64,000 bases of DNA from Eledone cirrhosa (taxonomy: Eukaryota): the NCBI GenBank assembly GCA_964016885.1, contig CAXHJY010000739.1:62001-126000 (forward strand). The letters run 5' to 3'. The notes under the pieces are model-generated. The model was not told where the DNA came from and did no database searches. It was given only the letters and a program-made list of their open reading frames with translations. Below, piece after piece: positions 1,519 through 64,000 of the stretch; within the stretch, counting starts at the first letter, position 1, and every line of letters begins with the position of its first letter. The translations under genes and the position numbers were made by a program.

Positions 1519-3490
1519 TGGGTAGGAAGAGATTTCCGAGGGGGTGTGGGGGAGTGGGGGAAAGACATTTAAAAAGGGAGGGGAGAAAAGGGAGGGTAAA
1601 AACATTTTTTTAGAGAGTAAAAAAATTTTTTAAAATAAAAATAAAAAGAAACAAGTGGTGAAAGGGTGTGAGGAATGTAAGGGTGGTGGTGGGTGGATAG
1701 GGGAGAGGGAGGCGGGGGGTCAGAGCAGGGAGGGCTGAAGGTGGTATGTGTGTGTGTATATGTGAATGTGAGAGTTGGGGGAAGAACGAGGTTCCATGTT
1801 CAGTTAAAAGGGAAACCGGTGTGTACATGGGGTGGGGTGTAAGTCGGTTTGTGTGTGCGTATGAATGGAGAGGGGTCAGAGGGGGGTGTGGGTGGAGTCC
1901 GGAGACTGAGTGTGTGTATGTGAGGATACGAACATGTGTGGTTTGTGTTTATATGTGGTGTGGATGTAGGTGGCGTGTTTCAAAAATAATATAAGTGTTT
2001 GTTGGTGTGTATGTTCCTAAGGTATTTCCATGGAGTGTAAGACCAGATGTTGCAGATTCTACGTGCGGTAGGATGGATAGCTGGAGCGATGACCGGTGGT
2101 GTAAAATCCTGGTGTGGTAGTGAGGAAGTGGAGAGATGTGGGGTGCGTGCGCAACAGGAAGTGGTCAGACACAAAAAATTTCAGTTCACTGTCCACATAG
2201 TTCCTTACATCAGAATATTCTATCCTGAAATATAATTTCCTATAATAGTGGATCACATGACACTTCAGAACATGATAGATATGACATTTTATAGGAGTTA
2301 ATATGAACCAAATATACTTTTGGAATAACTCTCTCCTACTGAAATAATCCCAACATGTCTTGGAGAAGAGGCCTCCCTTTTTAGAGTAATCCACACTCAA
2401 TCGTATGTTACAAGGTCTACTGAAGCTTCCCTGTTATCTTTCAGTAAACTCTACACACTAGCAGCATTTATGTGGGTCACAATGAATCTAAAGTGCTGAA
2501 ATAACCAAACAGCCTCACATATATATGTTTGCACATGTGGGTGGGTATATGTGTGTGTGTATATCTAGAGAAGGAAATCTCTAAATCTCTGATACATATA
2601 AACTCAAAGATCACCCCATTTTGGAAGGAAAGCTACAAGAATCTATAGATGTTGGTTCCAGTGTGACGTTATACAAGAAAACATGCAGTCTGGAGTTCAT
2701 ACACAGAATTATAATAACATTTAATAAATTTTGTCTTAGAGTCCTACTTGTCACAAGGTTTTGGTGCTCAGGCATGCCTTAGAACATTCTGGGTGGGTGC
2801 TCAAATTCTCTAGGGATTAAAAAAAAATTGATGTAATCACAGGTGGGAGCATTCATGTGGTTGCTGCCTGCTATGATTAAATTAAATTGTAGATGAGCTA
2901 TACCCATGACCCTTGTAGTTCCACTCAAACTGGCGAGTTTGATGTAGTTGCTATTCTGTTTGGATGTCTGTAGGCATGACATGGCTAAGGAGGAGAGTTT
3001 TGGGGTGAAATTATTAGGAGAAAAGTGGTTAGTAGCTGGCTTGTTTATAAGATGTTAAGTACATGAGCTAGGAAGACGACACATGGTATGGCAAACAAAA
3101 AGAGAAGCAGTTTAATCATGTTGAATTGAAATTAATGTAAGAAGAATTTATTATTGTCAATTTCTTTTTTGTTCTGGGTCACAGGACCTTTTATACTGAC
3201 CAACAGAAAAGTTTATTTTTGGTTTAATCCCTCTTAATGTGCAATTAAATTTCTCCAGTGCATTTGTTGATCCAGGTCCAACCTTAGACATGTAGTTTAG
3301 TGACATATTCCTAAACATTTCATATTCTATTAATAATTATCATTTATCAATGATATTACACATGTAATATAATTAAACTTAATAGCAAGCATTTATCAAC
3401 CAACAACAGAAAGAGTGTTTCCAACATATATCAAATGTTCTCCCTTCTCTAGTGAAACTTTTTCTTTATACTATGGTAATACTATGATCA

Positions 3491-3630
3491 GGCAGTGAAT
3501 TGGCAGAGTCATTAAAATGTCGGATAGAATGCTTTGCAGTATTCATTCCGGCTACCAGCACTCTCTGAGGTCAACTTTACTTTTCATCCTTTCAAGGTTG
3601 ATATAAAATGTACCAGTACTGGGATCAATT
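3491..3630 (+). mobile_element. tRNA-derived SINE (family A), diverged
   Basis: A-box-like TGGCAGAGTCATT and body GAGGTCAACTTTACTTTTCATCCTTT shared with other copies in the window. Confidence 0.7.
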
Positions 3631-4499
3631 TTTCCTCCATATATTTTTCTCAGTCTGTCTCTCTCTCCCTCTCTGGTGGAAATCTGTTGTGTTCAAATCT
3701 TGAGTGGGGATGGGTTCCGCCAAGTTTAAAGTACCCAAGATACGTTGTATATCATTACTGATCCATCAGGAGTTACGGGTATATACATCATCGTCATTAT
3801 CATTTTCGTTTTAACATCCGCTTTCCCTGCTAACAATGTCATTATCACAGTCAATACATTTTTTAAAAATCTCAGTCGTATTCTTCTGAACCGGAGTTGG
3901 GGATGTTTTTAGTATCAGGACAAATTGCAAGTACATAAAATCCTATGAGGGTGCATCTGTACCAAGAATGATGATGAATCTTTAATTCTGAAAGTTTAGT
4001 TATACAGCTTATATTAAATTACAGTTTTGATCATAAGTCATACATTTTTTTTCTGCCTGAATTTTACAGACTTCATCTGTGGTCGATTAGTACAATTAAT
4101 GAATTGCAAGTGAGAGTGCAAAAGAATTGTAGTTAAAACAGAAAACAAAAAAGAACGAACATGTTTAAATATAATGGAATATACACATATTTCTTTTTGT
4201 ATTTCTTTTGCAAGATTCCTGTTGTTCAATCATTATCATCATCATCACTATTTTACGTCTATGTGTTGAAATTTGTTATAATTTTGGGAAGGTCATACTG
4301 TCAATATACTACCCCCACCTCCCAGTGTACCAGTTGAGTTTCACTTCAGTTTTATTATCAGTTTACCCTTTCATTCTTCCAGGGTGGATAAAATAAAGTA
4401 CCAATAATGCACAGTGGTCTATTTAATTGAGTTTTTTTCCTTCCCTTCACAGTGCTGGTCTTGTACCAAATGTAGAAACAATTATTAGTTAGGTAACTA

Positions 4500-4717
4500 G
4501 GGCAGTAGATTAGGAGAATCATTAAAACGTCGAACAAAATACTTTGCAGCATATAGAGTTACAGCCCTTTATGTTCTGAGTTCAAATTTTGCAGTTGTCA
4601 ACTTTGCCTTTCCATCCTTCTTCGGTTGATAAAATAACGTACCAGGAATGTACTGGGTCGATATAGTCGGCTTTCCCCTAACAACAAACTTTTGGCTTTC
4701 TGCCTAAATTAGAAATT
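4500..4717 (+). mobile_element. tRNA-derived SINE (family A) with 19-bp TSD, inserted in the ATT tail of an older SINE (~4330-4486)
   Basis: B-box-like GAGTTCAAAT and family body. Identical flanks ATTATTAGTTAGGTAACTA at 4481-4499 and 4718-4736. Confidence 0.85.
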
Positions 4718-5282
4718 ATTATTAGTTAGGTAACTAAACTAATCTATTCTTTGGTTAGTTTAATTACTGGGTCGTTATTTAATTGTCATATTTGATAGTT
4801 AAAACTCTTTCGTCACACATTCTGCAACTTTCTCAAGGATTATTTTGCTCCTCTGTGTCTCCTCTTTGTTTTGATTTTGTTTTATTTATTCCATCTTGTT
4901 ATTCTCTATGTAGTATTTATAAAGATTATAGTTGAAATTGAAAAAAAAAGAAAGAAAGAAACTGCTAAATGTAATGGAAATTGTATTCAAATTTTGTTCT
5001 TTCCGTTTTGCTAGCAACGTATGTACACAAACAGAAAATCAGTGTATGTGTACTATTGCAATGCCATATATACACACAGGAAATAGCACAGTTTATTCTA
5101 AATGGAATGAATATTTATTAAATAAGATAGTAAAGTTTATATAATAAATAGTGAAATGAAAAAGATAGAGAAAAAAAAAGGAAGAAAAAGATAGAGAAAT
5201 TAAGAAATGAAAAAAGTAAAAGAGGGAATGAAGAAACAGACTGCTTGACATCCCAGCCTGAGTGACATGCTTTAGCTATGCC

Positions 5283-5800
5283 CAGCTGCCAAAATGGCGA
5301 AGGCATTGCTGGGGAGAATGGTCAGTGACACTCACTGTAGCAGCCACCCTACCTCACAGGGTTCCTTCCTCAGGTGAGCTTCAGTTTTCTCGATTTTGCA
5401 GAGGTAAGTAGCATTTCAGGGACTGACATGAAAAGGAAGTGGTTGATCAAGTCCCAGTATTTGGTTATTTTCCTCTCTTCTGCATCTCAGGTGGCAGAGC
5501 CCAGATTTGCAGCAGAAGCTTTATGGCTGGAGGCAGAGAGTTGCATCCCAGATTAGGGATTTACCTCCCTTGAATGTGAAGATAGTTATCCCTCCTGGGA
5601 TCTTACCATCACCATGGTCGATATCAGCTGGCTCTAGTTATGATGGGAAGTCAGTCACATTGAGATTTCTTCTGATTATGTTGTTCACAGAGACATATTA
5701 AGGGAACTGACCTGCACTATGGTGGCAGGATAGTTAGTGCAGACCGAACTGGATTGTAGCGCTGAGAAGATATGTGTCATTTCTCAATGTTAGCCATGCC
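5283..5800 (-). mobile_element. Decayed C-terminus of a CRE-clade non-LTR retrotransposon (restriction-like endonuclease region)
   Basis: Manual minus-strand translation gives VNNIIRRNLNVTDFPS*LEP, DGKIPGGITIFTFKGGKSLIWDATL, AEERKITKYWDL and WLLQ*VSLTILPSNAFAIL. These match the CRE-type DGKRPDG..LxWD / AExxKxxKY / QRISxxxQRGNA series. Confidence 0.7.
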
Positions 5801-6371: not shown

Positions 6372-9300
6372 TTACAGGCACATACTCAGGGCCATTCTTC
6401 CCTCTCTCACCCATCTTTCAACAAAATGCTGGGAAGAGAGCACTTCCCTCTTTACCCTGATTTTCATTTTCAAATGAAATTTGAAAAAGTTAATCAGGGC
6501 ATCACCGAAGAGGTAAGTGCTCATCTTCAGCCCTTTCAAATGCGTCCACCATACTATCTCTTTCGCCATGGCCACCAGACAGTTAAAAACTGCCTGCCCT
6601 TCCCAGCTAAAGGAAGAGGGTGGGGCAATCCTCACGATGGACTCAGCTAATAGCCGAATCCGTCCTACACACGACAACAGGTGTTCGACATAAACCCACA
6701 AGTCAGCAATGCTCGGGCACTGGACGAGTGCGTGCAGGACTGTTTCGCCGCCCTGCGCGCATCTCGGACATGCCCAGCTGACGGCACCTCCATGCCTGTA
6801 GAGTTTATCCTGAACTGGCAAAGCCCCTCGGTAGCACTGCCAGGCCAGGGATTTCTGGAAGTTGCCCTGGCCCGAAAGTTCTTCCGAAGAGATTGGCTAG
6901 TTGATTTTCATCGACGCCTAGAGTTTCCCCAAGTACGTCGTCACTCTTCCCCTCCACTAATCCTCTATAGAATGCCAAGGTGGAGTTTCCACTGATCACT
7001 TTGCCCAACTGGTCGAGGGCTGTGAGCGCCTGAAGACATTCCAGTCTCGAAGCGCTCACTCTCGGTCTTCGCTTGACCCAGGAATGCAGCTCCGTCAAGG
7101 AGACGAGCTGGGGAAAGACACGTCTAGCAAAGACACGTCTAGCAAAGACACGTCTAGCAAAGACACGTCTAGCGACCACACCTGATCACCGTCGAGGAAG
7201 AGGTGGAGATGTTGTAGCTTGAGCGCGTGTCTGCGCATCATCAACCACGGCATGCCCAGCTCTCCACATAGCGGGTGTTGACAGCAGATGAACTGCCTGA
7301 CCATCGGAGCGTATCTCTTCCACAAAAAGCGAAAGAGAAAATGCTCCAGCGCAGTCAGGCGAGGCTTAGGACAAGGCAGTAGTAGATGACGGACGCGATG
7401 TACACATTCGCCACCTCCGCTCAACCTTTCAGGGATAGCTTCCTCTCTGCCCAATTCTGGGTGAGAGAAGCCACCCTGCTCGTCACCTCGTCCCAGTTTT
7501 TGTCCATCTGGAGGTCCGGACCGAACCAGACTCTTAGCAATTTAACCGGTCCGTCCGTCCAGTGCCCGACGACGCTGTTGGATGGCATGGACCTGCCTCT
7601 CCAGGTGCTGAGCTGCAGGCCCACCAACTTTTCCTGGTTGATCATTGCTACTGTCACCGCTTCGTATTCTCTTAGTGTAGTGCCGATTGCCTTGATGTGT
7701 TTGGCATTCGACACCACTACAGTGAGATCGTCCGCATATGCTGACACAGATCTTCCGCATCCTAGTTTGCGCGGGACCCCCCTCAACGTCTCCAGTTTGT
7801 GCAGTAATGGCTCAAGAGTCAATACGTACAAGAGGGACGAGAGAGGACATCCTTGGTGGACCGAGCGCATGATGTTGAACGGTTCCGAAAGGTGACCGTT
7901 CACTCTCACCACAGAGCAGATGTCGCTGTGCATGGCAGCTATCCAGCCTCTGAAGATGGGCCCAAAGCCAGCCGCCCTCAGGACTGTCGCCAGATAACGG
8001 TGGTCGACCCTATCAAAAGCTTTCGACTGATCTAAATTGATCAAGGACCTACCCGTGCCAGGTTCCCTAGCTACCCTCTCCACGATGTATTGCATGAGGT
8101 GGAGGTTGTCATGGATGGATCTGTCTGGAATGGCTCATGTCTGCACGTCTCCCATCAGACCACCAACAACAAGCACCAACCTTTTTGCTAGCACCTTGGC
8201 CAAAATCTTGAACTCTGTGTTTAGCAGAGTTATGGGCCTGAAATTATCTATGTTAACCCCCTTGTTCGGATCCTTTCTCAGCAGAGCCACTGCTCCTCAG
8301 CTCACAGACCTGGAAATTCTCCTGTTCTGTTGCCAGTTGCAGTAGACGTCCGCCAAGAGGCCTCCGAACAAGTCTGGCATCTGTACGTAAAGTTCATAGG
8401 GCACACCATCCAAACCAGGTGATTTACCCCTTGTGCAGCCAGTCATTGCCTCCCTTACTTCAGCGGCTGTTATCGGCTTTTCGCAACACTCCGCCTCAGT
8501 GGCCGAGAGCCGCGGCAGTCTGTTGAGGTAGGCACTAAAGTCCATCCCTCGATCTGGCCCGCCGCTGCTCCCCGAACAGCTGAGCGAAGTGTCGCTGAAA
8601 AGCTTCACACATTTGCCCGGGATCGAGTAGCATGCGCCCGTCGTGGTCCACCAAAGACCGGATCGTGGCTTTGTTGCCACGACGCGCCTCCGCCACTTGG
8701 GCCCATTGAATGGCTTTCGTCCCCTCGTGTCTGAGAGCACGCACCCTAGCTCTGACAATGCAGCCTTCGTGCTTTGCATTGAAGAATTGGTCAAGGGCCA
8801 ATTTTGCTGCAAGTACGTTGGTCACGGTGCCTTTACTAACCGCCTCGTCTAATTTTCTAACTAGTTCTCCCTCTGCTCTATTTTTCTCTATTGCTAAAGC
8901 CTTATTAAACCTAATGGACTCTATTCTAATCGCTCTTTTCAGAGCAAACCACCATTTGTTGTTGACGATGGACCCCGTCAACACCCGCTTAACTAATTCG
9001 CTAATCCGGTCTCTGTAGGCCTTGCACGCTGTTAATGACGTGTTTAGTCCCTGTCTATGAAGCCTATCTAATTCAACCTCACAGATCACGAATTTGTGGT
9101 CCGTGTAGTCGACTATTTTGAAATGTGGGCAGCCTATGCTAGACCTATCTATTTCCCTATAAAATACTCTATCTAGATATGATTGGGATGACCCGATGCG
9201 GTTTATCCATGTCCCCATTGGCACATTCGGGAAATCCAGACGGTACCTGTCAGACAGTTGAAACCGTCTGAGCAGGTTTGCGAGGCTTTTACACCCTTCT

Positions 9301-9776
9301 CCCCTATCCGCTAATCCCACACAGTCCCAGCGTGCATCTAAGATCCTGTTCCAGTCGCCCACTAACACTAAAGAGTGGGACGTTCCAAGAAAGGTCTCCA
9401 GACACCGGAAGAAATCAGGCCACCCTGCTCCTATCGGGGCATAGACGGCCACTAGCCTGAAAGCTTGCCTGTCTCCGCTAGTCACGTTCAGCACCACCAA
9501 CTTACCTTCTGGGTCCAGGAAGATGGCCCGTATGGCGAGATCCAAACCTCTCCGAAAAAGTACAGCAACTCCTCCCCCCGATCCAGGACGGCTGGGAGAT
9601 GTGTACACATCGTAGCCGCAGAAGATCAGCGCGAAGGTTCATGCTTCAGAGATTCTGGTCTCGCTGATGGCCACCACATTTATGTTTAGTGACCTGAGGT
9701 CGTTGAGCAAGTGGCCCTGCTTCCGTGACAACCTCAGGCCACGCGCATTTATGCTACCTACTCTGAGTGAGGTCAT
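6372..9776 (-). pseudogene. Tx1-type LINE ORF2 (APE endonuclease, reverse transcriptase, C-terminal CCHC finger), frameshifted
   Basis: ATG at 9776 gives MTSLRVGSINARGL. ORF fragments contain VYAP, LVGDWN, YLDR, TDHK (APE); KSPGLDG, LDQSKAFDRVDH, QGCPLS, AYADD (RT); CPRC..ETVLHALVQCP. Several frameshifts and stops. Confidence 0.93.
7114..7173. repeat. 4 x 15-bp perfect tandem (AAAGACACGTCTAGC) inside ORF2
   Basis: Read directly; translates as ARRVF x4. Confidence 0.95.
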
Positions 9777-18229: not shown

Positions 18230-19100
18230 CGATTCAACTATGAGGTGACAGCAGAGAGGAAAACCCATGATCGATGATCTGATGGTGTCAGATGCTGGAG
18301 TTTGTCACTGAAGTCCAGGAGATCATCAACAATTATCCCAGCAAGTCGATCGTGCCATTGCAAGAGAAAAGTGTGGATGAAAAGCTCATCAGGCTGGTGG
18401 TACATGAGGACATTTGCTATTTTTCATACAAAATGAGGAAGGGACAATTTCTGCCCAAGGCATTGCAGGAAAAGCAATTCAAACGCATCAAGAAGCTGAT
18501 CAACAAGTTGAAACATCCACTGGAGTTAGACATGCTGTGGTTCTTCTCCGATGAGAAGAACTTCTGCCAAGACCAGAAGATCAATTCCCAGAACAAGAGT
18601 TGGCTTGCTGTCTCACTGAAGGGCATGTACAGAGTCATGCAGACAAAGTTCCCAGCAACAATCATGGTCTTTGATATCGTCAGCAGTGAAGGTGATGTCA
18701 TCCTCCAACACTTTTTCCATGAAGGCCTCAGGTTGAATACTGATGGCTATATCCATGTTCTGAGTGAGGTGGTGAAGCCCCGGATCAACTGGGTAACTGC
18801 AGGGTGGTTGTACGTGAGGCAGCAAGACTTGGTGCTCTTCCATATTAGCCAGAAGACCCAGGCCTGGCAGTTGGAGAACTTCTTCGACCACCTGAAATTT
18901 GGCCTCCTAACTTGCCTAATTGCAACTCCCTTGACTTCTTTGTGTGGGGCACAGTGGAATGAGAGACCAACAGATTCAGTGGCAACACTAAGGATGAGCT
19001 GAATGCTAGGATCACCAGGGCCTAAGTCAAGAGACAGTGAAGAAGGCCTGTGGCTAGTTCCGAGGCAGCCTCAAAACTAAAGGTGAGTTCACCATATGAG
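18230..19100 (+). mobile_element. Tc1/mariner-superfamily DDD transposase pseudogene
   Basis: ORF 18292-19002 contains WFFSDEKNF, TKFPATIMVF, GLRLNTDGY and RQQD..HIS. A frameshifted WPPNLPNCNSLD follows (cf. WPPxSPDxNPLD). Confidence 0.88.
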
Positions 19101-30153: not shown

Positions 30154-32445
30154 TCAGATGGAAGGTTTGTGTTTATCAACCCCACTAGAGCCAACACTGT
30201 TGCCACTTGCACCTCTCTTGCTCTGCTTCGGCACAACATTGCAGGAGAATGCACTCTGTGTGTTTGAGCTGTTGTTAGGCCCCCACCCTGGTGAACCCCA
30301 CTGGGATGACATCGGGAAACCCCTTGGCCAGCTACCGTAGTTACCACCCCACGACTGCATCATCTGGTGGTGTGTGTATGACGAAGGGATCGAGAGCGGT
30401 TGCAGTCGTAAGGCTGCAGCAGCTGCAGCAGATGTATGGTGCGGGGAGATGGAATGGGGAGGGTGTGGGGACTGAGTGGGAGGTTGAAAACTCCTGTTGT
30501 GTGAGTGCGACTCATCTGCTGAGGTATTGTGTTGGTGCTGAGATGAATGAGGGAGGGGTTGATGTGGGGAGTGTGGTGATGGAGAAGACGACGGTGTATG
30601 CTGTTGTTGCTGGTGATGAGGTGAGGGTGAGTGATGAGAGTGGTGCAAGGGGGGAGAGGTGGCTGTCTGAGGTGGATGGATGCTAACTCTGGCTGAAGAT
30701 TTTCCCTTCCCTGAGAGAGGAGCTTGCTGACACAGTCCACTTGTGGAAGCAGACCCAGTGCTATCAGGAGTATTAGAACCACTACCTCCATTAGTATTGT
30801 TATTATTATTGTTGTTGTTGTTGTCATTAGTGTTGTTGGGTGTATTAGTTGTGTTGTTAGGAATTTGTTTGTTTTGGCTCAATGCTTTAGCACTAGCGGC
30901 CTGAGCACAGGCATGGCTTTGTAGGTTGGCTCTTTGAGCAAACCCCTTTTTACAAATGTCACACGTATAAGGTTTTTGAATGAGTGGCGGTGGCACTACA
31001 GGTATCCGAATACATTCATGATGATTTAAGTTAGACCTCTGACTAAATGACTTCTTGCACACACCACACGTATATGGCTTAATGCCAGTGTGTGTGCGCT
31101 CATGGATAGTAAGGTTAGCTTTTTGAGGAAATGTTTTTTCACAGTAAGAGCATTGATAGGGCTTCAGCCCTGTATGAGTGCGCTCATGTATATCCAAGTT
31201 AGCTCGCTGAGAGAATGACTTGTCACACACAGAACATCTATACGGCTTCAGGCCTGTGTGTACACGTTCGTGAATGTTTAAATTTGCACGCTGGCTGAAA
31301 CCTTTCAGACATATTGCACATGTGAATGGCTTTTCTCCTGTATGAGTGCGCTCGTGTATGTCCAGATTTGCTCGCTGTGGAAATGCCTTACGGCAGTATG
31401 AACACTGAAACGGTTTCTCACCAGAGTGCGTGCGTTCATGTATGTCCAAGTTAGCACGTTGGCTGAATGACTTGGTACATACTGAACATGCGAACGGTTT
31501 CTCCCCAGTATGTATACGTTCATGGATGTGGAGGTTTGCCCGGAGAGAAAACGCCTTGTCGCAGACAGAGCACTTATAAGGTTTAACACCTGTGTGGACA
31601 CGTTCATGAATATTCAAATTAGCTCGTTGGCTAAAACTTTTTTTGCAAATACCACAGACGAACGGCTTTTCTCCAGTGTGTGTACGTTCGTGGATATTCA
31701 GATTGGCTCTCTGAGGAAATGATTTGGGACAGAATGAACACTGAAACGGCTTTATCCCCGTATGTGTGCGTTCGTGGATATCCAGATTTGCACGCTGGCT
31801 GAAGCTTTTTTGGCAAAAACTGCAGCTAAATGGTTTCTCTCCAGTGTGGGTTCTTTCGTGAATCTTCATGTTTGCCTTCAGAGAAAATGATTTTGGACAA
31901 TAGCTACATTTGAATGGTTTCTCTCCGGTGTGAGACCTTTCATGTATGTGTAGATTAGCACGCTGCGCAAATGCTTTCCTACAGAATGTACAGTTGAAGG
32001 TCTTCTCCGTTGTGCTGGCTGAAATAGTCCCAGAACCTCGGCCACGACCCCTCCCTCCACCTCGACCCACCCCCTGGTTAGGGTGGGAGTTCATATGGGG
32101 TAAGAGGTGGGAGTGGCCGAGTGAGTGAGAATTGGAATGAATCGCATCTGCATTGGGTACATTGAGGCAGTTCTTGAAGTTGCTGCCATTTTTGCCAGAT
32201 TCCGGAAACGGCTTCCAGCACATACTGCCGTTGTCGGGCAACACCTGCTTGTGGTCAGTTGAATGCTGAGAGTGTGGCGACATTGGGCCCTGAGGTGTTG
32301 TTGAGGTAGGGGGATGTGTTGAAGGTGCTGATCCATTGTCATTGCAGCCATTCAAGTGATGATGGTCAATCTGAGAGAATCCTCGGTTGCAGATATCATA
32401 GTCGAAAGGTCTATCCACTGGGTACATGGACTGTACCGGGTACAT
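30154..32445 (-). CDS. Tandem C2H2 zinc-finger protein, 763 aa, single coding exon (11 C2H2 + 2 C2HC fingers; RGG-like patch; Asn, His/Pro/Ser and Ala low-complexity C-terminus)
   Basis: Uninterrupted ATG-to-stop ORF with repeated CxxCx3Fx5LxxHx3H and TG(E/I/L/V)KP linkers. Confidence 0.95.
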   Translation of the reverse strand: MYPVQSMYPVDRPFDYDICNRGFSQIDHHHLNGCNDNGSAPSTHPPTSTTPQGPMSPHSQHSTDHKQVLPDNGSMCWKPFPESGKNGSNFKNCLNVPNADAIHSNSHSLGHSHLLPHMNSHPNQGVGRGGGRGRGRGSGTISASTTEKTFNCTFCRKAFAQRANLHIHERSHTGEKPFKCSYCPKSFSLKANMKIHERTHTGEKPFSCSFCQKSFSQRANLDIHERTHTGIKPFQCSFCPKSFPQRANLNIHERTHTGEKPFVCGICKKSFSQRANLNIHERVHTGVKPYKCSVCDKAFSLRANLHIHERIHTGEKPFACSVCTKSFSQRANLDIHERTHSGEKPFQCSYCRKAFPQRANLDIHERTHTGEKPFTCAICLKGFSQRANLNIHERVHTGLKPYRCSVCDKSFSQRANLDIHERTHTGLKPYQCSYCEKTFPQKANLTIHERTHTGIKPYTCGVCKKSFSQRSNLNHHECIRIPVVPPPLIQKPYTCDICKKGFAQRANLQSHACAQAASAKALSQNKQIPNNTTNTPNNTNDNNNNNNNNNTNGGSGSNTPDSTGSASTSGLCQQAPLSGKGKSSARVSIHPPQTATSPPLHHSHHSPSPHHQQQQHTPSSSPSPHSPHQPLPHSSQHQHNTSADESHSHNRSFQPPTQSPHPPHSISPHHTSAAAAAALRLQPLSIPSSYTHHQMMQSWGGNYGSWPRGFPMSSQWGSPGWGPNNSSNTQSAFSCNVVPKQSKRGASGNSVGSSGVDKHKPSI

Positions 32446-32615
32446 TTTTGCCCTTCAAGTAACAGAAAAAGGAGAGAACATTTAGGCTACATCTAATCCA
32501 TTTGGATCACAGATCTTCCATAGAGTGAAGGATTATCTTAAATCCCCTCCCTCAAACTCTATTCAGCAGTAACTCACAGATTATTGTGTTCTTTGGTGTT
32601 CTTTCCTCACGTCTT

Positions 32616-48824: not shown

Positions 48825-56170
<7,346 letters not shown>

Positions 56171-57755
56171 ATATAAGTATGTACACGTACATACATATAT
56201 GTATACCGACGTACAGTAGTATGTATATATATATATATACATACATGCACACATATATACATGCACGTATGGATTCACCGAACATTTATTATAATGCTCG
56301 GTGTGTTTGTAAACAAACATCCCGTATTAAGCCGTAGTGTCTAGCAACCACCGTTGCTCGTTTGTTCAACACTGACAAAGGAACGCTGTACTAGTTTCAA
56401 GCTTGTTCAGCTATCGTCAGCAACGTATACCTTCCTGCCAGATTGTTGAACGTATATACTTACCTTATGCATATTAACGGCTGAGTAGCCCAATATGCAT
56501 ATCGAGTGGGTTAATCGGCCGGGTGCACCGAAAACGATAAACGGAAAAAATGAAACGATATTTCATTTCCCACTCTTAGTACGGTCGTTACTTAAATATA
56601 AGTATGTACACGTACATACATATATGTATACCGACGTACAGTAGTATGTATATATATATATATACATACATGCACACATATATACATGCACGTATGGATT
56701 CACCGAACATTTATTATAATGCTCGGTGTGTTTGTAAACAAACATCCCGTATTAAGCCGTAGTGTCTAGCAACCACCGTTGCTCGTTTGTTCAACACTGA
56801 CAAAGGAACGCTGTACTAGTTTCAAGCTTGTTAGCTATCGTCAGCAACGTATACCTTCCTGCCAGATTGTTGAACGTATATACTTACCTTATGCATATTA
56901 ACGGCTGAGTAGCCCAATATGCATATCGAGTGGGTTAATCGGCCGGGTGCACCGAAAACGATAAACGGAAAAAATGAAACGATATTTCATTTCCCACTCT
57001 TAGTACGGCTGTTACTTAAATATAAGTATGTACACGTACATACATATATGTATACCGACGTACAGTAGTATGTATATATATATATATACATACATGCACA
57101 CATATATACATGCACGTATGGATTCACCGAACATTTATTATAATGCTCGGTTGTGTTTGTAAACAAACATCCGTATTAAGCCGTAGTGTCTAGCAACCAC
57201 CGTTGCTCGTTTGTTCAACACTGACCAAAGGAACGCTGTACTAGTTTCAAGCTTGTTAGCTATCGTCAGCACGTATACCTTCCTGCCAGATTGTTGAACG
57301 TATATACTTACCTTATGCATATTAACGGCTGAGTAGCCCAATATGCATATCGAGTGGGTTAATCGGCCGGGTGCACCGAAAACGATTAAACGGAAAAAAT
57401 GAAACGATATTTCATTTCCCACTCTTAGTACGGCTGTTACTTAAATATAAGTATGTACACGTACATACATATATGTATACCGACGTACAGTAGTATGTAT
57501 ATATATATATATACATACATGCACACATATATACATGCACGTATGGATTCACCGAACATTTATTATAATGCTCGGTGTGTTTGTAAACAAACATCCCGTA
57601 TTAAGCCGTAGTGTCTAGCAACCACCGTTGCTCGTTTGTTCAACACTGACAAAGGAACGCTGTACTAGTTTCAAGCTTGTTAGCTATCGTCAGCAACGTA
57701 TACCTTCCTGCCAGATTGTTGAACGTATATACTTACCTTATGCATATTAACGGCT
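56171..57755 (-). repeat. Hammerhead-containing 424-bp satellite, left (inverted) arm, ~3.7 units
   Basis: TCGTCAG (reverse complement of CTGACGA) at 56414, 56838, 57263 and 57687; units are reverse complements of the right arm. Confidence 0.97.
56364..56451 (-). ncRNA. Type I hammerhead ribozyme (representative of 4 minus-strand copies)
   Basis: Reverse complement of the 58077-58163 motif; this copy has one extra base in loop II. Confidence 0.85.
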
Positions 57756-60700
57756 GGTTGCTAGACACTACGGCTTAATACGGGATGTTTGTTTACAAAC
57801 ACACCGAGCATTATAATAAATGTTCGGTGAATCCATACGTGCATGTATATATGTGTGCATGTATGTATATATATATATATACATACTACTGTACGTCGGT
57901 ATACATATATGTATGTACGTGTACATACTTATATTTAAGTAACAGCCGTACTAAGAGTGGGAAATGAAATATCGTTTCATTTTTTCGTTTATCGTTTTCG
58001 GTGCACCCGGCCGATTACCCACTCGATATGCATATTGGGCTACTCAGCCGTTAATATGCATAAGGTAAGTATATACGTTCAACAATCTGGCAGGAAGGTA
58101 TACGTTGCTGACGATAGCTAACAAGCTTGAAACTAGTACAGCGTTCCTTTGTCAGTGTTGAACAAACGAGCAACGTGGTTGCTAGACACTACGGCTTAAT
58201 ACGGGATGTTTGTTTACAAACACACCGAGCATTATAATAAATGTTCGGTGAATCCATACGTGCATGTATATATGTGTGCATGTATGTATATATATATATA
58301 TACATACTACTGTACGTCGGTATACATATATGTATGTACGTGTACATACTTATATTTAAGTAACAGCCGTACTAAGAGTGGGAAATGAAATATCGTTTCA
58401 TTTTTTCCGTTTATCGTTTTCGGTGCACCCGGCCGATTAACCCACTCGATATGCATATTGGGCTACTCAGCCGTTAATATGCATAAGGTAAGTATATACG
58501 TTCAACAATCTGGCAGGAAGGTATACGTTGCTGACGATAGCTAACAAGCTTGAAACTAGTACAGCGTTCCTTTGTCAGTGTTGAACAAACGAGCAACGGT
58601 GGTTGCTAGACACTACGGCTTAATACGGGATGTTTGTTTACAAACACACCGAGCATTATAATAAATGTTCGGTGAATCCATACGTGCATGTATATATGTG
58701 TGCATGTATGTATATATATATATATACATACTACTGTACGTCGGTATACATATATGTATGTACGTGTACATACTTATATTTAAGTAACAGCCGTACTAAG
58801 AGTGGGAAATGAAATATCGTTTCATTTTTTCCGTTTATCGTTTTCGGTGCACCCGGCCGATTAACCCACTCGATATGCATATTGGGCTACTCAGCCGTTA
58901 ATATGCATAAGGTAAGTATATACGTTCAACAATCTGGCAGGAAGGTATACGTTGCTGACGATAGCTAACAAGCTTGAAACTAGTACAGCGTTCCTTTGTC
59001 AGTGTTGAACAAACGAGCAACGGTGGTTGCTAGACACTACGGCTTAATACGGGATGTTTGTTTACAAACACACCGAGCATTATAATAAATGTTCGGTGAA
59101 TCCATACGTGCATGTATATATGTGTGCATGTATGTATATATATATATATACATACTACTGTACGTCGGTATACATATATGTATGTACGTGTACATACTTA
59201 TATTTAAGTAACAGCCGTACTAAGAGTGGGAAATGAAATATCGTTTCATTTTTTCCGTTTATCGTTTTCGGTGCACCCGGCCGATTAACCCACTCGATAT
59301 GCATATTGGGCTACTCAGCCGTTAATATGCATAAGGTAAGTATATACGTTCAACAATCTGGCAGGAAGGTATACGTTGCTGACGATAGCTAACAAGCTTG
59401 AAACTAGTACAGCGTTCCTTTGTCAGTGGTTGAACAAACGAGCAACGGGTGGTTGCTAGACACTACGGCTTAATACGGGATGTTTGTTTACAAACACACC
59501 GAGCATTATAATAAATGTTCGGTGAATCCATACGTGCATGTATATATGTGTGCATGTATGTATATATATATATATACATACTACTGTACGTCGGTATACA
59601 TATATGTATGTACGTGTACATACTTATATTTAAGTAACAGCCGTACTAAGAGTGGGAAATGAAATATCGTTTCATTTTTTCCGTTTATCGTTTTCGGTGC
59701 ACCCGGCCGATTAACCCACTCGATATGCATATTGGGCTACTCAGCCGTTAATATCGCATAAGGTAAGTATATACGTTCAACAATCTGGCAGGAAGGTATA
59801 CGTTGCTGACGATAGCTAACAAGCTTGAAACTAGTACAGCGTTCCTTTGTCAGTGTTGAACAAACGAGCAACGGTGGTTGCTAGACACTACGGCTTAATA
59901 CGGGATGTTTGTTTACAAACACACCGAGCATTATAATAAATGTTCGGTGAATCCATACGTGCATGTATATATGTGTGCATGTATGTATATATATATATAT
60001 ACATACTACTGTACGTCGGTATACATATATGTAGTACGTGTACATACTTATATTTAAGTAACAGCCGTACTAAGAGTGGGAAATGAAATATCGTTTCATT
60101 TTTTCCGTTTATCGTTTTCCGGTGCACCGGCCGATTAACCCACTCGATATGCATATTGGGCTACTCAGCCGTTAATATGCATAAGGTAAGTATATACGTT
60201 CAACAATCTGGCAGGAAGGTATACGTTGCTGACGATAGCTAACAAGCTTGAAACTAGTACAGCGTTCCTTTGTCAGTGTTGAACAAACGAGCAACGGTGG
60301 TTGCTAGACACTACGGCTTAATACGGGATGTTTGTTTACAAACACACCGAGCATTATAATAAATGTTCGGTGAATCCATACGTGCATGTATATATGTGTG
60401 CATGTATGTATATATATATATATACATACTACTGTACGTCGGTATACATATATGTATGTACGTGTACATACTTATATTTAAGTAACAGCCGTACTAAGAG
60501 TGGGAAATGAAATATCGTTTCATTTTTTCCGTTTATCGTTTTCGGTGCACCCCGGCCGATTAACCCACTCGATATGCATATTGGGCTACTCAGCCGTTAA
60601 TATGCATAAGGTAAGTATATACGTTCAACAATCTGGCAGGAAGGTATACGTTGCTGACGATAGCTAACAAGCTTGAAACTAGTACAGCGTTCCTTTGTCA

Positions 60701-63078
60701 GTGTTGAACAAACGAGCAACGGTGGTTGCTAGACACTACGGCTTAATACGGGATGTTTGTTTACAAACACACCGAGCATTATAATAAATGTTCGGTGAAT
60801 CCATACGTGCATGTATATATGTGTGCATGTATGTATATATATATATATACATACTACTGTACGTCGGTATACATATATGTATGTACGTGTACATACTTAT
60901 ATTTAAGTAACAGCCGTACTAAGAGTGGGAAATGAATATCGTTTCATTTTTTTCCGTTTATCGTTTTCGGTGCACCCGGCCGATTAACCCACTCGATATG
61001 CATATTGGGCTACTCAGCCGTTAATATGCATAAGGTAAGTATATACGTTCAACAATCTGGCAGGAAGGTATACGTTGCTGACGATAGCTAACAAGCTTGA
61101 AACTAGTACAGCGTTCCTTTGTCAGTGTTGAACAAACGAGCAACGGTGGTTGCTAGACACTACGGCTTAATACGGGATGTTTGTTTACAAACACACCGAG
61201 CATTATAATAAATGTTCGGTGAATCCATACGTGCATGTATATATGTGTGCATGTATGTATATATATATATATACATACTACTGTACGTCGGTATACATAT
61301 ATGTATGTACGTGTACATACTTATATTTAAGTAACAGCCGTACTAAGAGTGGGAAATGAAATATCGTTTCATTTTTTCCGTTTATCGTTTTCGGGTGCAC
61401 CCGGCCGATTAACCCACTCGATATGCATATTGGGCTACTCAGCCGTTAATATGCATAAGGTAAGTATATACGTTCAACAATCTGGCAGGAAGGTATACGT
61501 TGCTGACGATAGCTAACAAGCTTGAAACTAGTACAGCGTTCCTTTGTCAGTGTTGAACAAACGAGCAAACGGTGGTTGCTAGACACTACGGCTTAATACG
61601 GGATGTTTGTTTACAAACACACCGAGCATTATAATAAATGTTCGGTGAATCCATACGGGCATGTATATATGTGTGCATGTATGTATATATATATATATAC
61701 ATACTACTGTACGTCGGTATACATATATGTATGTACGTGTACATACTTATATTTAAGTAACAGCCGTACTAAGAGTGGGAAACTGAAATATCGTTTCATT
61801 TTTTCCGTTTATCGTTTTCGGTGCACCCGGCCGATTAACCCCACTCGATATGCATATTGGGCTACTCAGCCGTTAATATGCATAAGGTAAGTATATCGTT
61901 CAACAATCTGGCAGGAAGGTATACGTTGCTGACGATAGCTTAACAAGCTTGAAACTAGTACAGCGTTCCTTTGTCAGTGTTGAACAAACGAGCAACGGTG
62001 GTTGCTAGGACACTACGGCTTAATACGGGATGTTTGTTTACAAACACACCGAGCATTATAATAAATGTTCGGTGATACGTGCATGTATATATGTGTGCAT
62101 GTATGTATATATATATATATACATACTACTGTACGTCGGTATACATATATGTATGTACGTGTACATACTTATATTTAAGTAACAGCCGTACTAAGAGTGG
62201 GAAATGAAATATCGTTTCATTTTTTCCGTTTATCGTTTTCGGTGCACCCGGCCGATTAACCCACTCGATATGCATATTGGGCTACTCAGCCGTTAATATG
62301 CATAAGGTAAGTATATACGTTCAACAATCTGGCAGGAAGGTATACGTTGCTGACGATAGCTAACAAGCTTGAAACTAGTACAGCGTTCCTTTGTCAGTGT
62401 TGAACAAACGAGCAACGGTGGTTGCTAGACACTACGGCTTAATACGGGATGTTTGTTTACAAACACACCGAGCATTATAATAAATGTTCGGTGAATCCAT
62501 ACGTGCATGTATATATGTGTGCATGTATGTATATATATATATATACATACTACTGTACGTCGGTATACATATATGTATGTACGTGTACATACTTATATTT
62601 AAGTAACAGCCGTACTAAGAGTGGGAAATGAAATATCGTTTCATTTTTTCCGTTTATCGTTTTCGGTGCACCCGGCCGATTAACCCACTCGATATGCATA
62701 TTGGGCTACTCAGCCGTTAATATGCATAAGGTAAGTATATACGTTCAACAATCTGGCAGGAAGGTATACGTTGCTGACGATAGCTAACAAGCTTGAAACT
62801 AGTACAGCGTTCCTTTGTCAGTGTTGAACAAACGAGCAACGGTGGTTGCTAGACACTACGGCTTAATACGGGATGTTTGTTTACAAACACACCGAGCATT
62901 ATAATAAATGTTCGGTGAATCCATACGTGCATGTATATATGTGTGCATGTATGTATATATATATATATACATACTACTGTACGTCGGTATACATATATGT
63001 ATGTACGTGTACATACTTATATTTAAGTAACAGCCGTACTAAGAGTGGGAAATGAAATATCGTTTCATTTTTTCCGTT

Positions 63079-63081
<3 letters not shown>
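57756..63081 (+). repeat. Hammerhead-containing 424-bp satellite, right arm, ~12.6 units (putative non-LTR retrozyme array)
   Basis: CTGACGA at 58108, 58531, 58955, 59379, 59806, 60229, 60654, 61078, 61503, 61929, 62350 and 62774 (spacing 421-427 bp). Confidence 0.97.
58077..58163 (+). ncRNA. Type I hammerhead ribozyme (representative of 12 plus-strand copies); predicted cleavage after GUA at 58138
   Basis: Stem I ACGUUG (58102-58107) / CAGCGU (58139-58144), extended by CUGGCA..AAGG / CCUUUGUCAG and GUUCAACA / UGUUGAAC. Core CUGACGA 58108-58114. Stem II AGCU-AACA-AGCU. GAAA 58129-58132. Stem III palindrome ACUAGU. Confidence 0.88.
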
Positions 63082-63138: not shown

Positions 63139-64000
63139 TTTACTCTTTTACTCTTTTACCTGTTTCAGCCATCCGGCTGAGGCCATGCTGGGGCACCGCC
63201 CTTGTTGCTACACATTTTATCTCCAGCCTGTATAGGTTGGCCACTGGTGTAGGAGGGAGTTTGTTGCTGCTGCCCTTAGGTTTCCCTCGTGTCTTGCTGT
63301 GGGCTCATCCGGGATCCTGGATAACAAGGTGTCGAGATGTTTCTTAAAGACATCCACCTCCACGTCATGCAAGTCTCGCAGATGCCTCGGCAGCCTGTTG
63401 AAGAGTTGAGGGCCCTTGAATCCCAGGCTATTGCAATACCTGCTCCTTATTCTAGATGTGGAAGACGGGACCTTTGGCACCACACAGTGACGTCCTGTTC
63501 GACGGTTGGTCCAGCTCCCAATGCCAAAGTTTGGTGCTAGTCCCTCCAGGATTTTCCACATGTAGATCACTGCGTATCTCTCCCGTCTTCGCTCCAAGGA
63601 GTAGAGGTTCAGTTCCTTCAGCCTCTCCCAGTAGCTTGTCTCCCTCATCTTGGCAATCCTCTTGGTGTAGCTTCGCTGGATTGCCTCAAGCTCTGTGGTT
63701 AGTTTGACACTATGGGGTGACCACAGCTGGGAGCAGTAGTCCAGGCGGCTTAGGACAAAAGTCCTCCACAGTGTCAACATGGTGTCTCGATCTCTTGTAA
63801 GGAAAGTCCTCAAGATCCAGCCAGCGAATCGTCTACATGCTGTCGCCACCTTCATGATGTGTGAAGAAAAAGATGCATCATCGCTCATGTCTATGCCCAG
63901 GTCTCGTATCGATTTTGACACGGGGATATCGGTCCCTCCTGGTCCTGTGTAGCTGTGTTCCGCTATATTTGTGTTTGTGTTTGCAGGTTTGTATTGTAGG
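63139..64000 (-). mobile_element. CR1-clade LINE 3' end (C-terminal ORF2 region, 3'UTR, short repeat tail); continues beyond the window
   Basis: ORF 63217-63921 IRDLGI..FSSHI, SRLDYCSQLWSP, LEAIQR..Y.ERLKELNLYSLERRR. 3' end GGCGGTGCCCCAGCATGGCC..CTGAAACAG followed by (GTAAAAGA)n. Confidence 0.88.

Follow-up and report, generated by a model that had tools for sequence, protein, structure and literature searches.

We describe here a hammerhead ribozyme motif at positions 58108-58144 of the plus strand in a 64,000-nucleotide stretch of the Eledone cirrhosa genome (contig CAXHJY010000739.1, the whole stretch being referred to below as the window), which by its sequence is a type I hammerhead with a U10.1·U11.1 mismatch and the helix III sequence ACUAGU. 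The motif belongs to the metazoan non-long-terminal-repeat (non-LTR) retrozymes. According to the explanation we favour, to which we give a probability of about 0.68, a 424-base-pair (bp) retrozyme unit has this motif as its canonical type I hammerhead, and efficient cutting likely takes place only in a double hammerhead. The array of units would be transcribed as a multimer, in which neighbouring units would swap helix I strands and pair their ACUAGU palindromes into a 6-bp helix III, creating two active sites, and the products would be closed by an RtcB-type ligase, for which an in vitro precedent exists. The monomer circle would be largely spared, having a 1-bp helix III and, in the window's family (family A), a predicted pairing of the core CUG with the palindrome's UAG; by analogy, a borrowed reverse transcriptase, probably that of a Penelope-like element, would then copy round the circle into (TA)n sites.

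The motif and the array that holds it are laid out as follows.

58078..58107 (+): 5′ strand of the extended helix I, with distal stems, the 5′ side of internal loop 1 (GUAU, 58098-58101) and the proximal strand ACGUUG (58102-58107)
58108..58114 (+): catalytic core strand CUGACGA (C3-A9), read from the sequence
58115..58128 (+): helix II, with U10.1 at 58115, AGCU at 58116-58119, AGCU at 58124-58127 and U11.1 at 58128, giving a mismatch and four pairs
58120-58123 (+): loop 2, AACA, of the RNnA type by sequence
58129..58131 (+): core GAA (G12-A14), invariant across the family alignment
58132..58137 (+): helix III, self-complementary ACUAGU, with 1 bp and a tetraloop in the monomer and a predicted 6-bp duplex between units
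58138..58139 (+): predicted cleavage site A17/C1.1 after a GUA triplet, placed by hammerhead numbering
58139..58162 (+): 3′ strand of helix I, with CAGCGU (58139-58144) pairing with ACGUUG (58102-58107), the 3′ side of loop 1 (UCCU, 58145-58148) and distal stems
57749..63081 (+): plus arm, 12.6 units of 424 bp with 12 hammerheads
56171..57756 (-): minus arm, 3.7 units with 4 hammerheads
57749..57756 (no strand): head-to-head junction of both arms, a short sequence common to the two
58690 (+): private G, preceded by U, at a position that is A in all 16 other loci with context

The window motif has the complete type I core (C3UGANGA9, G12AA14, A15.1-U16.1 and H17), and between families the strand C3-A9 varies only at N7. 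Helix I consists of 6 proximal pairs followed by the internal loop UCCU:GUAU and further distal stems, and the segment 58078-58168 folds with a z of -2.51. Loop 1 (UCCU:GUAU) and loop 2 (AACA/AAUA) fit the tertiary motifs UNmYN and RNnA as a sequence match, the nearest printed example of loop 1 being UCCA:GUAC of Schistosoma mansoni (PMC2632901). A reading of this DNA from sequence alone (the sequence-only reading) had pointed to a self-complementary ACUAGU directly after GAA and to a U·U at 10.1/11.1 conserved across copies, and we find both in 16 of 16 window hammerheads. It had also mentioned one copy with an extra base in stem II; such a base is present at the stem II/loop 2 border, but in two of the 16 copies (+61929 and -56420). 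Both are probably consensus errors, because window units carry indels (10 of 14 have short indels and almost no substitutions relative to the reference unit), whereas the family-B units of two chromosome-placed arrays, L196 and L197, contain no gaps. We also observed that the two helix II arms (window 58115-58128) are themselves 6-base palindromes, UAGCUA and AAGCUU, in family A only, and could permit unproductive pairing from unit to unit.

A scan of both strands of the window returned 16 hammerheads, 12 on the plus and 4 on the minus strand; the unit's opposite strand has no ribozyme. The plus arm ends 3′ at unit position 277, past the cut and adjoining (TA)n, and the minus arm at unit position ~221, beside a 7.3-kb (TA/TG)n microsatellite (48825-56175). 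No open reading frame of 150 amino acids occurs in the array (56171-63081). With a type I hammerhead in 16 of 16 units and a GC content of 0.39, the 424-bp unit fits the retrozyme range of 150-450 bp and GC under 50%; folded as a circle, it is 71% paired (z -8.0, 60 shuffles), as a self-paired retrozyme circle should be, and in the genome the units are non-coding, dispersed and present in high copy number. The Rfam hammerhead models did not match the window motif at the gathering score or at E<=10, a match to them not being class-defining, and an Rfam match to snoJ33 in the window (E 0.93) was rejected as chance. Four sequencing runs of unstated kind over the contig displayed subfamily variation and are uninformative on expression.

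Comparisons with published systems draw, here and below, on parts of the cited texts. Canonical metazoan type I hammerheads have a helix I of 6 bp, a helix II of ~4 bp and a helix III of 1-2 bp with a palindromic loop of 2-4 nucleotides (PMC4209133), and newt satellite 2 is among them (PMC4209133; PMC6155905; Forster 1988 as cited there). The window motif conforms to this definition and differs at 10.1·11.1, with U·U in place of the usual G-C. The description of the hammerhead as atypical therefore falls, as the short palindromic helix III is canonical (PMC4209133) and natural U·U hammerheads have been published (PMC3088659; PMC7229834); repeat-type ribozymes often have a palindromic stem III (Perreault et al. 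2011, PMC3088659), and the dimer fold, with the idea that multimers are cut and circles spared, has already been stated (PMC4209133). Each of the flagged features is thus already in print, and the motif alone is ordinary.

The proposed likeness to the Penelope-associated minimal hammerhead does not extend beyond the palindromic, dimer-type helix III (PMC4209133; review PMC6765202; Lunse et al. 2017 as cited). That ribozyme has an extra unpaired base between A9 and 10.1, a G10.1-C11.1 pair, a long helix II and a short helix I whose loop 1 is ill defined (PMC4209133). The window motif instead takes the canonical retrozyme form, with no extra base after A9, U·U, a 4-bp helix II and a full 6-bp helix I with a defined loop 1 and tertiary loop motifs, in a short non-coding unit, and we rejected its membership of the Penelope group. 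Elsewhere in the window, at 1487-1518 on the minus strand, lies a separate hammerhead-like motif of the Penelope-minimal type, with an extra A after A9, G10.1-C11.1 and a loop-less palindrome ACGU, lacking a good helix I; it is probably a decayed fragment. Penelope-like elements are described as the probable source of the mobilising enzyme (PMC7229834; bioRxiv 10.64898/2026.07.22.740005).

The axolotl ribozymes HHR_Amex1 and HHR_Amex2 are type I hammerheads of 330-350 bp tandem units (PMC7229834, Cervera and de la Pena 2020), the first with a helix III of 1 bp and a palindromic tetraloop, the second with U·U at the base of helix II. In monomeric form the two have low activity (6-22% cleaved per hour, HHR_Amex2 reaching 22% in one hour), and as dimers they are efficient, HHR_Amex2 being cleaved much better in that form (PMC7229834). 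The window motif joins the helix III of the one to the U·U of the other in a single ribozyme, a combination for which targeted searches found no literature precedent, though the supplement of PMC7229834 may hold one. Unlike the axolotl arrays, it occurs in a 424-bp unit, in two opposed arms, in an AT-rich genome of invertebrate type and with sister families that vary both positions. A literature search on hammerhead ribozyme and octopus gave no retrozyme paper by title.

Across the 3.0-Gb genome, the U·U state combined with the pattern AC-NN-GU-H gave 44,443 matches (12 for the reversed control), and the same core pattern with another base at 10.1 gave 16,877 (control 287), roughly three quarters of all cores in the genome being U·U. 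A core pattern of fixed length matched 59,706 times (control 2). The following families were distinguished.

Family A (the window's): U·U, ACUAGU, cuts after GUA, 424-bp unit
Family B: U·U or A-U, ACGCGU, 310 bp
Family C: G-C, ACUAGU, 466-469 bp
Family D: C·A or C-G, ACUAGU
Family E: A·A, ACAUGU, dispersed, older
Family F: G·U or similar, ACAUGU

Unit-wide homology is 77-86% between A and D and 69-74% between A and E, is weak for family C, and is restricted to the ribozyme for family B; core, helices and loop motifs are retained across families that diverge elsewhere. Family E, with A10.1·A11.1 and ACAUGU, was found at L113-L128, L138 and L139, at ~70% to the window's unit. The cut triplet also follows family, the U·U families A and B cutting after GUA and the G-C, C·A and A·A families (C, D and E) after GUU/GUC; between A and its 86% relative D, positions 10.1, 11.1 and 17 differ together, in few lineages. 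Three sites at two loci, L008 (2005+ and 1160-) and L014 (1946-), carry a repeated CUGANGA-NN-GAAA with a two-base helix II region and unrelated flanks. The palindrome was rejected as a family code, ACUAGU being common to families A, C and D.

The evidence that carries the dimer reading comes from the centre of the palindrome. Within any one family a palindrome is weak evidence, because only two centre bases are free and informative (A15.1/U16.1 and C15.2/G16.2 are helix III itself) and 4 of the 16 possible dinucleotides are self-complementary, so that support has to come from other families. Among the 59,706 cores, 39,656 have the centre UA and 18,516 the centre GC, and at least 97.4% are thus self-complementary. 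The centres AG, AT, CG and CT account for 662 cores, and the first 100 of these rows, counted by eye, comprised 88 AU, 8 CU, 4 AG and 0 CG, the AU centres belonging mostly to one older family. Non-palindromic centres of the form U-B (UC, UG or UU) number 449, the remaining others 423, and V-D centres 287 among the U·U cores; among the rows listed, those without a palindrome are single mutants at scattered places, or else belong to local arrays and duplications. Three distinct centres would all be self-complementary by chance with a probability of 4/560 = 0.007. Moreover, given the unit-wide homology of family A (UA) and family E (AU), the contrast between their centres represents a double change within one lineage. 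At G000:C1:319893994-319896433 we noted a family-A array in which 4 listed copies, lying on both strands, have the centre AU in place of UA.

The covariation check proposed by the sequence-only reading was run on homologous loci in a gapless alignment (A1) of 11 representatives hand-picked from 139 loci, which omits sporadic non-palindromic mutants, eight duplicated ACCUGU copies (L130-L137, represented by their palindromic relative L138) and F1/F2, in which helix I has decayed. In this alignment, helix I is 98.5% paired and all six proximal pairs change on both sides, helix II changes on both sides at four of five pairs, and the palindrome centre is UA in five representatives, AU in four and GC in two, while 10.1·11.1 varies freely and is unpaired in 7 of 11. 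As adjacent bases cannot pair inside one strand, covariation of the centre suggests that a second copy is the pairing partner. On these comparative grounds there is support for the proposal that units pair with each other by way of the palindrome.

Predicted folds point in part the same way. In the circular unit, helices I and II form and helix III has a probability of 0.00; a competent single fold costs 5.8-7.6 kcal/mol there, and the pairing of the core CUG with the palindrome's UAG is predicted in families A and C, not in B. For two-unit stretches, the double hammerhead lies 0-8.5 kcal/mol above the minimum free energy (MFE), compared to 13.4-20.3 for two single folds, and is cheaper by at least 6.3 kcal/mol in all 24 settings of family, flank and temperature; in family B with short flanks it is the MFE structure itself. 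The ACUAGU/ACUAGU duplex alone contributes a computed -4.8 kcal/mol, and all fold energies leave out core and tertiary contacts. In the double fold, the downstream helix I strand of each unit pairs with the upstream strand of the next, which is the pairing of the released monomer, and two cuts in the modelled structure would leave the monomer ends side by side.

The ends of the arrays bear on what was copied into the genome. Among loci selected because they contain the ribozyme, the 3′ ends of the arms gather around unit positions 215-221 and 274-277, beside (TA)n, with 45 of 64 falling in three 5-base bins. The 5′ ends are scattered; the ones close to position 127, and those at the first position of the window or L017, are alignment artefacts of a microsatellite or of the finite query. 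Genome-wide, 5′ junctions have no excess at the cut, with 38 there compared to 54 five bases downstream and 22 ten bases upstream, where a random upstream triplet passes the filters with a frequency of ~0.42, 0.28 and 0.42, respectively. This absence indicates that what was copied was a circle or an uncut multimer and not a linear monomer produced by cutting. Of 30 cut-site loci inspected, 6 proved to be small deletions or replacements that leave the hammerhead in place upstream. Run-off ends were rejected as proof of cleavage, there being no enrichment at the cut, and so was the idea that a missing base 17 is a ligation scar (seen at 4 of 30 loci, compared to one-base losses at 2 of 10 at a control site).

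A young, single-armed family-A array with 6 hammerheads (L190, G000:C2:78931500-78941400; array 3247-5699) offers a further view of the template. Relative to the window's unit, its five complete units have nine A>G changes in common, all in the sense strand, and lack T>C (P 0.004), with a 5′ U at seven of the nine (P 0.049); the changes include one in the palindrome and others in loop 2 and loop 1. The repetition of one pattern suggests that a single edited circle was copied several times, since an edited multimer would not repeat it. The earlier suggestion that the circle is spared while multimers are processed fits this array and the lack of a 5′ end excess at the cut, and the U·U lineage is, judging from these sequence patterns, probably processed in vivo. 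Among family-A rows with a non-palindromic U-B centre, 5 of 22 loci with a palindrome A>G have another A>G at stem II, compared to 1 of 46 loci with other centre changes (counted by eye with arrays counted once; Fisher P 0.012). The private G at 58690, found in 15 of 15 window units with context and in both arms, is a single site and compatible with either an RNA edit or a point mutation, and the A>G patterns may also have a DNA-level route. Two older family-C arrays (L191 and L192, G000:C1:14042500-14052400 and 95664000-95673900) have two-unit and six-unit higher-order periodicity, which is DNA-level turnover after insertion, and a non-palindromic mutant recurs within them.

Variation at 10.1·11.1 follows no such constraint. 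Repeated families carry U·U, G-C, A-U, C-G, G·U, C·A or A·A, and since these other states are amplified too, U·U appears tolerated rather than required; within family B, U·U arrays and A-U arrays have both been amplified, with no divergence between units. We rejected U·U as a conserved functional signature, sister families carrying G-C, A-U, C·A, A·A and G·U. From these sequences it is likely a tolerated weakening of helix II, neither a switch nor an inactivating lesion. Natural U10.1-U11.1 hammerheads exist, and U·U is described as the most active and best tolerated mismatch (PMC3088659); cave crickets have compensatory changes at 10.1/11.1 (PMC2837043), and the N7 of G10.1 is a metal ligand in crystal structures (PMC6961537). 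Natural U·U is common to the hammerheads of PMC3088659 and to ours, to which families E and D add A·A and C·A, states for which targeted searches, with figures and supplements beyond their scope, found no literature report.

Several points weigh against the double hammerhead. In the window's own family the double fold is never the MFE structure, lying 1.9-8.5 kcal/mol above it, the pairing probability of two palindromes is 0.00, and with 150-nucleotide flanks the double fold costs 7.3 kcal/mol, about as much as one single fold (6.8). The double fold also requires a long exchange of helix I strands, for which a chaperone may be required. The covariation has three states, and hence two or three events, among hand-picked representatives; missing 5′ ends at the cut fit uncut multimers as templates equally well; the edited array is a single locus, and DNA-level amplification is seen in the older arrays L191 and L192. 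Finally, the loop 1 and loop 2 tertiary motifs are intact, cleavage rates of 0.8 and 0.1 per minute are given for coral and mussel monomers, respectively (PMC7229834; helix III sequences not compared), and one of nine Xenopus dimers was cleaved in vitro (bioRxiv 10.64898/2026.07.22.740005).

Some of these points speak for cleavage by a single hammerhead, which we consider unlikely, in which contacts of loop 1 with loop 2 would offset a helix III of 1-2 bp, the palindrome would be secondary and the circle would be protected otherwise, for example by a protein. The fit of UCCU:GUAU and AACA to UNmYN/RNnA (PMC2632901) is retained across families, and coral and mussel monomers cleave readily, with axolotl monomers reaching 6-22% in one hour (PMC7229834). 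With long flanks, moreover, one single fold and the double fold have similar costs. A C-NN-G loop with a 2-nucleotide turn is sterically possible, as in the CUUG tetraloop. If single hammerheads sufficed, however, non-palindromic centres, CUUG included, should found families, whereas they are seen scattered or in local arrays (449 U-B centres of 59,706), UA, GC and AU each mark a family, and 5′ ends are not enriched at the cut.

Dimer cleavage in trans between separate RNAs, or only with a protein chaperone, in place of pairing between adjacent units, seems to us improbable. The palindrome would serve just as well in trans, numerous genomic copies stand alone or lie in opposed arms with one hammerhead each, swapping helix I strands in long transcripts is predicted to come at a cost, and cofactors have been suggested for weak dimer ribozymes (PMC4209133). 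A trans route would cut circles too, however, yet arms cross the cut site for up to 12 units without stopping there, and axolotl dimeric constructs cleave during transcription in protein-free conditions (PMC7229834). That the U·U lineage is catalytically dead, its arrays being DNA-amplified satellite or copies of uncut multimers, is very improbable: although genomic run-off ends at the cut are lacking, the higher-order repeats of L191 and L192 are typical of DNA-level turnover and the metal-binding N7 of G10.1 (PMC6961537) is absent here, U·U is the commonest class (44,443 compared to 16,877) and includes insertions that are very young and dispersed, families that differ elsewhere retain core, helices and loop motifs, the L190 pattern needs an edited template of unit length, and U·U ribozymes are active elsewhere (PMC7229834; PMC3088659).

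The rest of the window holds the following features.

6372-9638 (-): broken non-LTR retrotransposon that retains pieces of an endonuclease (PF03372) and of a reverse transcriptase (PF00078)
30154-32454 (-): open frame of 766 amino acids with a C2H2 zinc-finger array (PF00096, 10 stretches)

Two further open frames, 63217-63999 (-) and 18283-19002 (+), had no Pfam match at E 0.001; the first resembles the 3′ end of a long interspersed nuclear element and the second a fragment of a mariner-type transposase.

What the genome adds to a published motif is that the centre of the palindrome, which is unpairable within one unit, covaries across families, and that 10.1·11.1 need not pair. How metazoan retrozyme circles avoid self-cleavage is a question left open in PMC7229834, and the covariation favours a dimer gate as one answer to circle survival. 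Dimer gating, if true, accounts for the survival of retrozyme circles whose ribozyme seems able to fold, and compensatory variants of the palindrome already exist among the families. More tentatively, as a conjecture we take seriously and would still bet against, the whole retrozyme radiation of this genome may run on strictly pair-gated hammerheads, the gate being the missing protection of the circle, with the G10.1-C11.1 pair and its metal-binding N7 dropped and spread supported by U·U, A·A, C·A and G·U alike. If that were true, tens of thousands of natural variants would bear on the dimer gate and on the G10.1 metal site, and edited circles fossilised in DNA would provide an in vivo read-out.

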